A stretch of DNA of 64,000 nt, taken from assembly GCA_047967505.1 (NCBI GenBank), contig CM106538.1, one strand, 5' to 3'. Below the pieces are notes generated by a model. It ran no database searches, was not told where the DNA came from, and saw only the letters and a program-made list of their open reading frames with translations. The position numbers and the translations under genes were made by a program. Every line of letters begins with the position of its first letter. The first letter of the stretch is position 1. Shown here in pieces: positions 36,300-36,875 of the stretch. This DNA comes from Dipteris shenzhenensis (lineage: Eukaryota).

Positions 36300-36875
36300 A
36301 TAAAAAGGATTCTCATCCTCAAGTATTTACTTAGAGATCTGAAGTATGGACAAAGGTAGATGTATTGATAAATTTGCTTCGCTAGGTTCAAATCAAAGAG
36401 ATGTATTATGAAAGGTTCAAAATGGTTGTGAAAGAGTTTATGCAATTAATGGTGAAAGCATGGGGGGAGTGAAACATTAATATGCATTACATGGTAATCT
36501 TGTCACCATCATGGACCATGGTTTGTACAAAGTTAGGACCTTTAGTCCATTTGGAATATACAAGGCTTGGAGAAGTCGCACTATAGAGCGAAGGCAGCGT
36601 ACTTCAAGAACTCAAGGCATGGTGATGGTGTCACTTGTAGCAATGCATTGCATGAGACGTTCGACTGGTTTTTTAGATGTTTACTAGGTAGGACTTTGAA
36701 GTCTAAAAAGGAAAAGGCATCAGAACTTGTAAAAATCTTTAAATTGTATCAAAGAAATAGAAGGGATAGTGCTTGGAAAGCATCCATACAGAGTCGAGGA
36801 GTCACACATTGGTTGCAAGCTAGAGTGAGAGAAGGGAGAAGATGGGTCCAACCAGCAACAGAAGCTATGGCGTAA
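36300..36875 (+). pseudogene. RAG1/Transib-like transposase, C-terminal fragment
   Basis: YYERFKMVVKEFMQLMVKAWGE*NINMHYM / HHGPWFV...SIWNIQGLEKSHYRAKAAYFKNSRHG (E at 36570). Parallels RAG1 [14 protein letters not shown]...[12 protein letters not shown] as recalled. Confidence 0.65.

Follow-up and report, generated by a model that had tools for sequence, protein, structure and literature searches.

Decayed transposase pseudogene in Dipteris shenzhenensis and the RAG1-type fold predicted for its relatives

The stretch of Dipteris shenzhenensis DNA analysed here (64,000 nt of contig CM106538.1, GenBank assembly GCA_047967505.1; hereafter the window) holds, at 36278–36875 on the plus strand, the decayed 3' end of a transposase pseudogene, which we call the tail. 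The 5' half of such a gene, including its catalytic core, lies upstream at 26988–28033. To judge by sequence, tail and core belong to one protein family, because four relatives carry both parts in one open reading frame (ORF), and models of relatives predict a fold of the RAG1/Transib type. The gene in the window is dead and unable to make protein: it has 14 in-frame stops and a +1 shift, the first His of a conserved pair is lost and about 50 codons are absent. All coordinates are those of the window, and features are collected in Table 1.

Tail and core of one protein family

The tail is read in two frames. The frame of 36302 translates as ...RSEVWTKVDVLINLLR*VQIKEMYYERFKMVVKEFMQLMVKAWGE*NINMHYMVIL and that of 36300 as ...CHHHGPWFVQS*DL*SIWNIQGLEKSHYRAKAAYFKNSRHGDG...RVREGRRWVQPATEAMA* (asterisks are stops), and the tail residues quoted in an earlier reading of the same letters (the initial annotation) are found in place in both. 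Homology sets in at about 36278–36293 (tblastn and profile scan), i.e. upstream of 36300, and extends to the natural C-terminus of the family (alignment of relatives), where the family's own stop is preserved as TAA at 36873. There are six in-frame stops, four before the frame break and two TAG codons after it, and the break itself is a +1 frameshift near 36503 with a single surplus base. The part after the break carries the C-terminal W..R.R.G.RW motif of the family, and the read of 36504–36872 is 49% identical to the relative P0001. The second His of the HxxxxH motif (36510) and a Glu codon of the catalytic type (36570) are retained. The first-His position, which the initial annotation described as eroded by the frameshift, is indeed spoiled, but the codon itself reads GTA (Val, 36494–36496), directly before the +1 shift, and is not merely shifted.

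When a library of 1.84 billion representatives is searched with the 123-residue read of 36504–36872, 77 proteins match at E ≤ 0.001, and 29 of these reach 1e-10 or better; the best match has an E of 5.0e-26 at 49% identity, and all 77 are short (50–497 amino acids, aa). A profile of 32 relatives, built with the window row left out, matches 36504–36860 in a six-frame scan of the window (independent E-value, i-E, 2.2e-39; 123.4 bits). The sequence at the start of the relative P0026 (321 aa), ..PIPLDRVHICTLHA.., corresponds to the final conserved block of the upstream half (window 27860–28030), and the protein continues through ..AWGE..THYIHILYAHCPWF..GIWNTQGMEKSH.. Relatives were collected stepwise: a search with P0026 led to P0079, which as a query brought up 87 core ORFs, the longest of 541 aa.

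All four of the sufficiently long relatives tested align with both halves in the window. The initial annotation had proposed looking for a copy in which the two halves are contiguous; P0026, P0154, P0157 and P0160 each hold both. In P0154, a genomic ORF in which an in-frame intron is read through, the second Asp, CxxC, HxCxxH, HxxxxH and Glu stand in one piece. These four ORFs bear out the proposal that the tail is the C-terminal part matching the upstream core, as does a single, collinear core profile, which matches 27317–28033 (profile positions 17–267) and 36293–36529 (positions 318–395); its next best match in the window has an i-E of 0.98. No relative of 563–2000 aa was found among 1344 candidates from the P0026 search. 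The relatives from the P0026 and P0079 searches are nameless or 'hypothetical protein', and no Pfam model was found for the family when four tail and 10 core fragments of the window, and the relatives, were scanned; among the fragments, weak Pfam matches fall on 26087–26281 only (zf_ZIC, DUF6589 and DUF6723). This silence of Pfam on the fragments is all that speaks for the tail being an unrelated protein, or for a functional host gene of which the two parts are exons separated by a long intron. The relatives with both parts in one ORF, the 14 in-frame stops with the frameshift, and the conserved codons (about 50) that are missing refute either version, and we give them practically no chance.

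The His pair coincides with an intron site. Out of 53 relatives reaching ..T(H/Q)Y(I/M), 52 go on with Val and then diverge, which in the alignment is the mark of an intron beginning with GT; P0026 is the only relative that continues with His. The window tail has no full intron at this site. It reads HYM, GTA ATC TTG, an extra T, then CAC CAT CAT GGA CCA TGG (a stretch of 19 nt, versus 18 in spliced P0026), and the GTA at the junction is the same three bases that open the intron at exactly that point in relatives. The simplest reading of the junction would be an imprecise genomic deletion of the intron, leaving GTA (Val) where the first His codon stood, followed by a 1-nt insertion. P0134 likewise translates V-I-L into its intron, so that the deletion may instead have been larger, with 10 nt of the intron remaining. 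Under either deletion the first His is lost in the window copy. A retro-copy origin of the intron-less tail was considered as well and rejected as unnecessary, given the GTA left at the junction.

Homology of the 5' half breaks off sharply at ..LSEIGFH (28030) in every alignment, and upstream of about 26988 none could be traced to the collected relatives; eight in-frame stops lie within 26988–28033. This half retains an intron of 86 nt: the ORFs of P0110, P0111 and P0157 start inside its equivalent, and P0143, P0151 and P0161 are continuous there. In a maximum-likelihood tree the 5' half sits on a long branch (best identity 49%, to P0151) in a clade of 15 rows (support 100/99) together with P0026, P0143, P0154, P0157 and P0160. 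By this clade, the relatives that were modelled and those that bridge the two halves are the 5' half's own subgroup (the tree covers the 5' half).

Catalytic residues, predicted fold and the link to RAG1

Conservation was counted in the family alignment as rows with the residue over rows covering the column. The first Asp is conserved in 52 of 53 rows and the second in all 68, the Cys residues of CxxC in 68 and 67 out of 70, the His residues of HxxxxH in 22/22 and 25/25, and the Glu in 33/33 rows (alignment of tail relatives). The RAG1-type set of an Asp-Asp-Glu triad and Cys2His2 ligands is thus complete across the family, the window copy lacking the first His; such conservation agrees with an active enzyme in the ancestors. 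The initial annotation had all three acids and most zinc ligands in the window. Its coordinates for the acids (D27380, D27674 and E36570) are correct, and their codons are present together with those of C27734, C27743 and H36510.

An intact relative would be a cut-and-paste transposase of the Asp-Asp-Glu (DDE) type, with Cys2 and His2 zinc modules inserted in its RNase H-like core. Both Asp residues would lie on the RNase H-like sheet (in the model of P0143, D162 is in strand 154–167 and D259 at the end of strand 248–258), and the Glu of the invariant QG(M/L)EKSH, encoded in the last exon, would complete a putative metal-binding triad. The HxxxxH of the tail and the upstream CxxC may share a structural zinc, as in RAG1, and the tail would add a helical end to the protein. 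Cleavage of the hairpin type, as for RAG and Transib, may be assumed from the predicted fold.

Structural tests were done on predicted models of relatives, the window copy being broken. P0143 (511 aa, alignment of 73 rows) was modelled with a predicted local distance difference test (pLDDT) score of 81.4 and a predicted template modelling (pTM) score of 0.77. In a Foldseek search with this model, the rows listed in ranks 1–49 (E ≤ 0.001) are all RAG1, BbRAGL or HzTransib (best 1.1e-8; HzTransib 7.3e-5), and the next family is the P element transposase (8.1e-3). VIA-align superposes P0143 40–502 on mouse RAG1 459–949 with Z 17.2 and a root-mean-square deviation (rmsd) of 5.5 Å (398 residues), followed by BbRAGL (Z 14.6), HzTransib (14.0; 361 residues), P element (8.3) and Hermes (6.0); identity in the structural alignments of P0143 with RAG1-type chains is 12–14%. 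The model of P0154 (pLDDT 78.6) aligns over 1–338 with RAG1 660–964 (Z 11.6, rmsd 3.8 Å over 252 residues), and RAG1 and BbRAGL fill its first 20 rows, after which Z falls to 4.7. A protein language-model search with P0143 also puts RAG1 clusters first (score 0.97, 199 of 256 features shared). By these models the family clearly shares the architecture of RAG1 and Transib, in which ZnC2 and ZnH2 modules are inserted into an RNase H-like core.

At the sequence level, the link runs from the window to P0026 (tblastn) and from P0026 to RAG1 (phmmer). P0026 has 15 phmmer matches in PDB, all 15 of them RAG1 (E 0.0024–0.014). In these, its segment thyiHilyaHcpwfvdkwgslgiWntqGmEksh is aligned so that HilyaH corresponds to H937/H942 and gmE to E962 (residue numbers from chain 9jpu_A, in which 157–226 = 923–985). 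The window thereby has counterparts of H942 and E962, as the initial annotation had stated. RAG1 is the enzyme that rearranges antibody genes, and its E962Q mutant is the catalytically dead form; the PDB titles include RAG1(E962Q) in pre-reaction complexes. P0026 also aligns to positions 553–593 of the Pfam RAG1 model (PF12940), which is the region of the His pair and Glu. The cut-off of this model (25 bits) is not reached by any of the proteins, the best being P0026 with 15.8 bits (E 0.0038). Of the RAG1 identity proposed in the initial annotation, the RAG1/Transib fold holds for the relatives, but the gene is neither RAG1 nor closely RAG1-like (15.8 versus 25 bits).

Several observations weigh against a clear sequence link to RAG1, and others limit what the models show. 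The sequence link goes through one protein, P0026, at E of about 0.002. Window fragments match neither Pfam RAG1 nor PDB RAG1 chains in phmmer searches (the PDB matches are chance ones only, to HOP1 and a proteasome subunit), and RAG1 is found in PDB neither by the family profiles A1 and A2 nor by P0154 alone. The Pfam RAG1 model is touched by only two out of 46 tail relatives at E ≤ 1 and by one out of 73 core relatives at E ≤ 10 (P0026), and none of 12 long relatives matches it or any transposase model. As to the models, no single predicted chain holds all three acids. The alignment of P0154 with RAG1 ends at residue 338, the Glu of its QGLEKSH; this end-point is only suggestive, because the Glu segment has a pLDDT below 50. 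Finally, no CMC/Chapaev structure is present in the lists from the fold searches, and because of this these searches cannot separate Transib from Chapaev.

One copy split by repeats, or two copies

The tail and the core at 26.99–28.03 kb are probably, judged from their arrangement, the ends of a single copy, with 8.2 kb of repeats and satellite and an assembly gap now lying between them. A repeat composite of 8.2 kb with inverted-repeat ends, or a rearrangement, would have pushed the two ends apart. The halves are on the same strand, collinear and non-overlapping, with break points 49–59 residues apart; the density of stops is alike in both; inverted-repeat arms are found at both edges of the interruption; and the six-frame scan with the core profile detected no third fragment or extra copy of the family in the 64 kb. 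Microsatellite, low-complexity and C/G-rich tracts are also found inside the interruption.

Some features weigh against this reading. The piece absent between the halves corresponds to 58–59 residues of P0157/P0160, or to 49–50 profile positions, and it could not be traced in 28000–28700, in 35950–36420 or in any of the six frames of the window. Because these codons (about 50) are truly absent, a simple insertion is inadequate as an explanation. The halves are on different contigs of the scaffold, because the run of 100 N, which the initial annotation had overlooked, lies between them. In addition, a second inverted-repeat pair (24869–25390 and 29490–29015) encloses the 5' half alone, with satellite outside both ends, an arrangement that is compatible with a separately carried 5' fragment.

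The initial annotation took the halves for parts of two differently deleted copies. In such a scenario, two independent, differently truncated copies of one transposon family lie close together: the 5' part perhaps rides in the 4.6-kb inverted-repeat unit 24869–29490, and of the other copy only the 3' tail is left. Besides the second repeat pair, the absent codons and the scaffold gap, it is favoured by the 5' half retaining its intron (27259–27344) while at the intron site occupied in 52 of 53 relatives the tail lacks a complete one, and by the transposon debris that crowds the window. However, strand, order, non-overlap and the spacing of 49–59 residues would then all be coincidence, no other fragment is found in the 64 kb, decay is similar in both halves, and an imprecise deletion that left GTA would account for the intron missing from the tail. 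We consider two copies rather unlikely, and clearly less likely than a single split copy.

It is also conceivable that the contigs ending at 34090 and starting at 34191 were wrongly joined, so that the distance, order or strand of the halves is unreal. The gap of exactly 100 N, with low-complexity sequence and satellite around it, would suit such a scaffolding artefact. It would, however, require that complementary halves were joined by chance in the right order and on the right strand, and an inverted-repeat arm on one contig pairs with an arm on the other (28542–28739 versus 36004–35811); we regard an artefact as very unlikely. A solitary unit of the 182-bp satellite (24706–24868) abuts the inverted-repeat arm that starts at 24869.

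Table 1. Features of the pseudogene and its interruption in the window, and relatives that align with both halves
Feature	Coordinates	Strand	Basis and details
Relative P0026	residues 1–57 = 27860–28030; 151–300 = 36416–36860	+	tblastn, one ORF
Relative P0154	residues 6–157 = 27548–28030; 316–397 = 36504–36743	+	tblastn, one ORF
Relative P0157	residues 4–273 = 27293–28030; 332–404 = 36278–36499	+	tblastn, one ORF
Relative P0160	residues 1–116 = 27695–28030; 176–239 = 36305–36499	+	tblastn, one ORF
Upstream helical region	26988–27258	+	tblastn, = P0143 residues 56–146; stops 27075 (TAA), 27141 (TGA)
Intron, 86 nt	27259–27344	+	direct reading, GTAAGA...pyrimidine tract...ACAG; splicing gives ..FYGMRED-K-CDGKLIFVIKMDE
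Catalytic core, single frame	27345–28033	+	tblastn; core profile positions 17–267 of 402, i-E 3.2e-77; six stops: 27542, 27605, 27650, 27782, 27809, 28004
Core residues	27345–28033	+	first Asp 27380; second Asp 27674; CxxC 27734/27743; HxCxxH 27884/27890/27899
Interruption, 8.2 kb	28034–36277		repeat search, self-blastn
Inverted-repeat arms	28104–28148 and 28542–28770 versus 36045–35780	inverted	just inside both break points; core pair blastn E 7.6e-34
Second inverted-repeat pair	24869–25390 versus 29490–29015	inverted	blastn E 1.7e-48; first arm upstream of the gene
182-bp satellite, about 3.3 kb	29727–33000		about 18 tandem units, 60–85% identity
Assembly gap	34091–34190		exactly 100 N, low-complexity sequence alongside
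First part of tail	36278–36502	+	..KDSHPQVFT*RSEVW...KEFMQLMVKAWGE*NINMHYM-V-IL; stops TAG 36284, 36332, 36383 and TGA 36470; tblastn to P0157 332–404, P0160 176–239, P0009 66–129; core profile positions 318–395, i-E 2.5e-9
+1 frameshift	36503	+	surplus base between ATC TTG and CAC CAT CAT GGA; frames joined by alignment of P0026 and P0001
Second part of tail	36504–36875	+	HH-H(36510)-GPWFVQS*DL*SIWNIQGL-E(36570)-KSH... to TAA 36873; stops TAG 36534, 36543; C-terminal profile positions 10–128 of 135, i-E 2.2e-39

Surroundings and place among known families

By Pfam scan of its ORFs, the window is otherwise a graveyard of transposons. An open ORF of 776 aa at 42509–44836 (+) matches zf-C17orf113 (E 8.5e-16) and the hAT C-terminal dimerisation region (E 8.1e-5), and is a candidate for an intact hAT-type transposase or for a gene that has been domesticated. 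A Helitron remnant is spread over separate ORFs at 15522–18622 (−), with Helitron_like_N (4e-24 and 1.3e-9), PIF1 helicase (3.1e-45) and Pif1 2B (2.6e-11). A 267-aa ORF at 38914–39714 (−) has an AP2 DNA-binding domain (6.4e-11), a domain not usually found except in plants, apicomplexans and mobile elements. There are also four copies of a dispersed repeat (1–1332, 9449–10578, 14127–14866 and 23354–24065; 86–93% identity) and retroelement debris at 1770–2105 (−), 53475–54626 (−), 57498–57947 (+) and 61883–62167 (+), including an RVT_1 fragment, Ty3-type integrase zinc finger and SH3 domains, and copia-type gag fragments. Outside the window, the relative P0024 is a 253-aa ORF with the transposase tail (MEKSHYKARGVYFKNTRHGGG...) first and a core histone fold (PF00125, 9.4e-31) last.

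In these surroundings the tail fragment itself is ordinary dead transposon debris among other dead transposons, and matters little for the window. It is more useful as a pointer to genes (77 tail fragments and 87 core ORFs) for transposases of predicted RAG1 fold that go wholly unrecognised by standard domain libraries, a family whose His-pair/Glu segment can still be aligned to H937, H942 and E962 of RAG1.

The RAG1 core (mouse; PDB 6xny, 4wwx and 9jpu) and BbRAG1L (6b40) have the same domain order as the family, from the dimerisation/pre-RNase H region to ZnH2. RAG1 shares with it the two Asp, CxxC, HxxxxH and Glu, the pair and Glu being those aligned through P0026. The family differs from RAG1 in having many copies and fragments with conserved introns. 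The N-terminal zinc-finger/RING region of RAG1 was not seen in the relatives collected, whose ORFs are exon-sized with incomplete N-termini, and no kelch/RAG2 domain was found in a Pfam scan of 80 of the 118 window ORFs of at least 85 aa, a scan that a decayed partner could escape.

Transib (HzTransib; PDB 6pqx and 6pqn) has the same fold and, like the family, a multi-copy gene of the transposon type. It ranks lower than RAG1 in both fold searches of P0143, and Transib chains are missing from the phmmer PDB matches of P0026. Homology of the core to Transib/RAG1 is indicated by the predicted fold and, weakly and via RAG1, by sequence. Canonical Transibs have terminal inverted repeats with RSS-like CAC... 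ends and a target-site duplication of 5 bp. In 24–38 kb only two CACWRTG heptamers are found (at 35297 and 37230), neither of them at a boundary. According to one preprint, true Transibs may have no InterPro match (bioRxiv 10.64898/2026.08.26.747230), and a broad screen recovered only 35 Transib transposases (10.1101/2021.09.26.461848).

For Chapaev the comparison is mostly one of distance. Kapitonov and Koonin count Transib, TransibSU, Chapaev and Chapaev3 as members of a single superfamily that includes RAG1, with the Chapaevs only distantly related (PMC4411706); for Majorek et al. DUF1280 equals Chapaev and is grouped together with RAG1 (PMC3985635); and a 2026 preprint notes that the core of Chapaev is less similar to RAG1 and that Chapaev has a Chapa domain at its N-terminus (bioRxiv 10.64898/2026.01.24.700457). 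The distance from RAG1 that these papers give for Chapaev/Chapaev3 (CMC) would fit that of the family. A cnidarian Atlas cluster, in which 51% of members have DUF1280, neighbours the family at a score of 0.93, and the nearest nameless Atlas clusters are from molluscs, chordates and Mucoromycota fungi. DUF1280 itself (PF06918) was found in none of 46 tail relatives (E ≤ 1), 12 long relatives or 73 core relatives (E ≤ 10). CACTA/EnSpm, Mirage and KDZ/Plavaka elements have a DDE core with CxxC and an HxxxH-type insertion; the same 46, 12 and 73 family members gave no match to Transposase_21, DUF4218, DUF1258 or KDZ.

It is doubtful, though conceivable, that the relatives form a deep undescribed RAG1/Transib clade with conserved introns of its own. 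Equally tentative is the suggestion, within such a clade, that the ZnH2-Glu segment may be nearer to jawed-vertebrate RAG1 than that of canonical Transib is, because P0026 matches only RAG1 chains in phmmer and no Transib or BbRAGL. An undescribed clade would be a new outgroup for reconstructing the origin of the RAG1 core. As it stands, the family is best placed as a distant branch of the RAG1/Transib/Chapaev group that has no Pfam model and is distinct from RAG1 itself; transposons of this general type are known already. If it proves separate from the Chapaev and Transib families in repeat libraries, it would extend the range of sequences sampled from the lineage that gave rise to the V(D)J recombinase.

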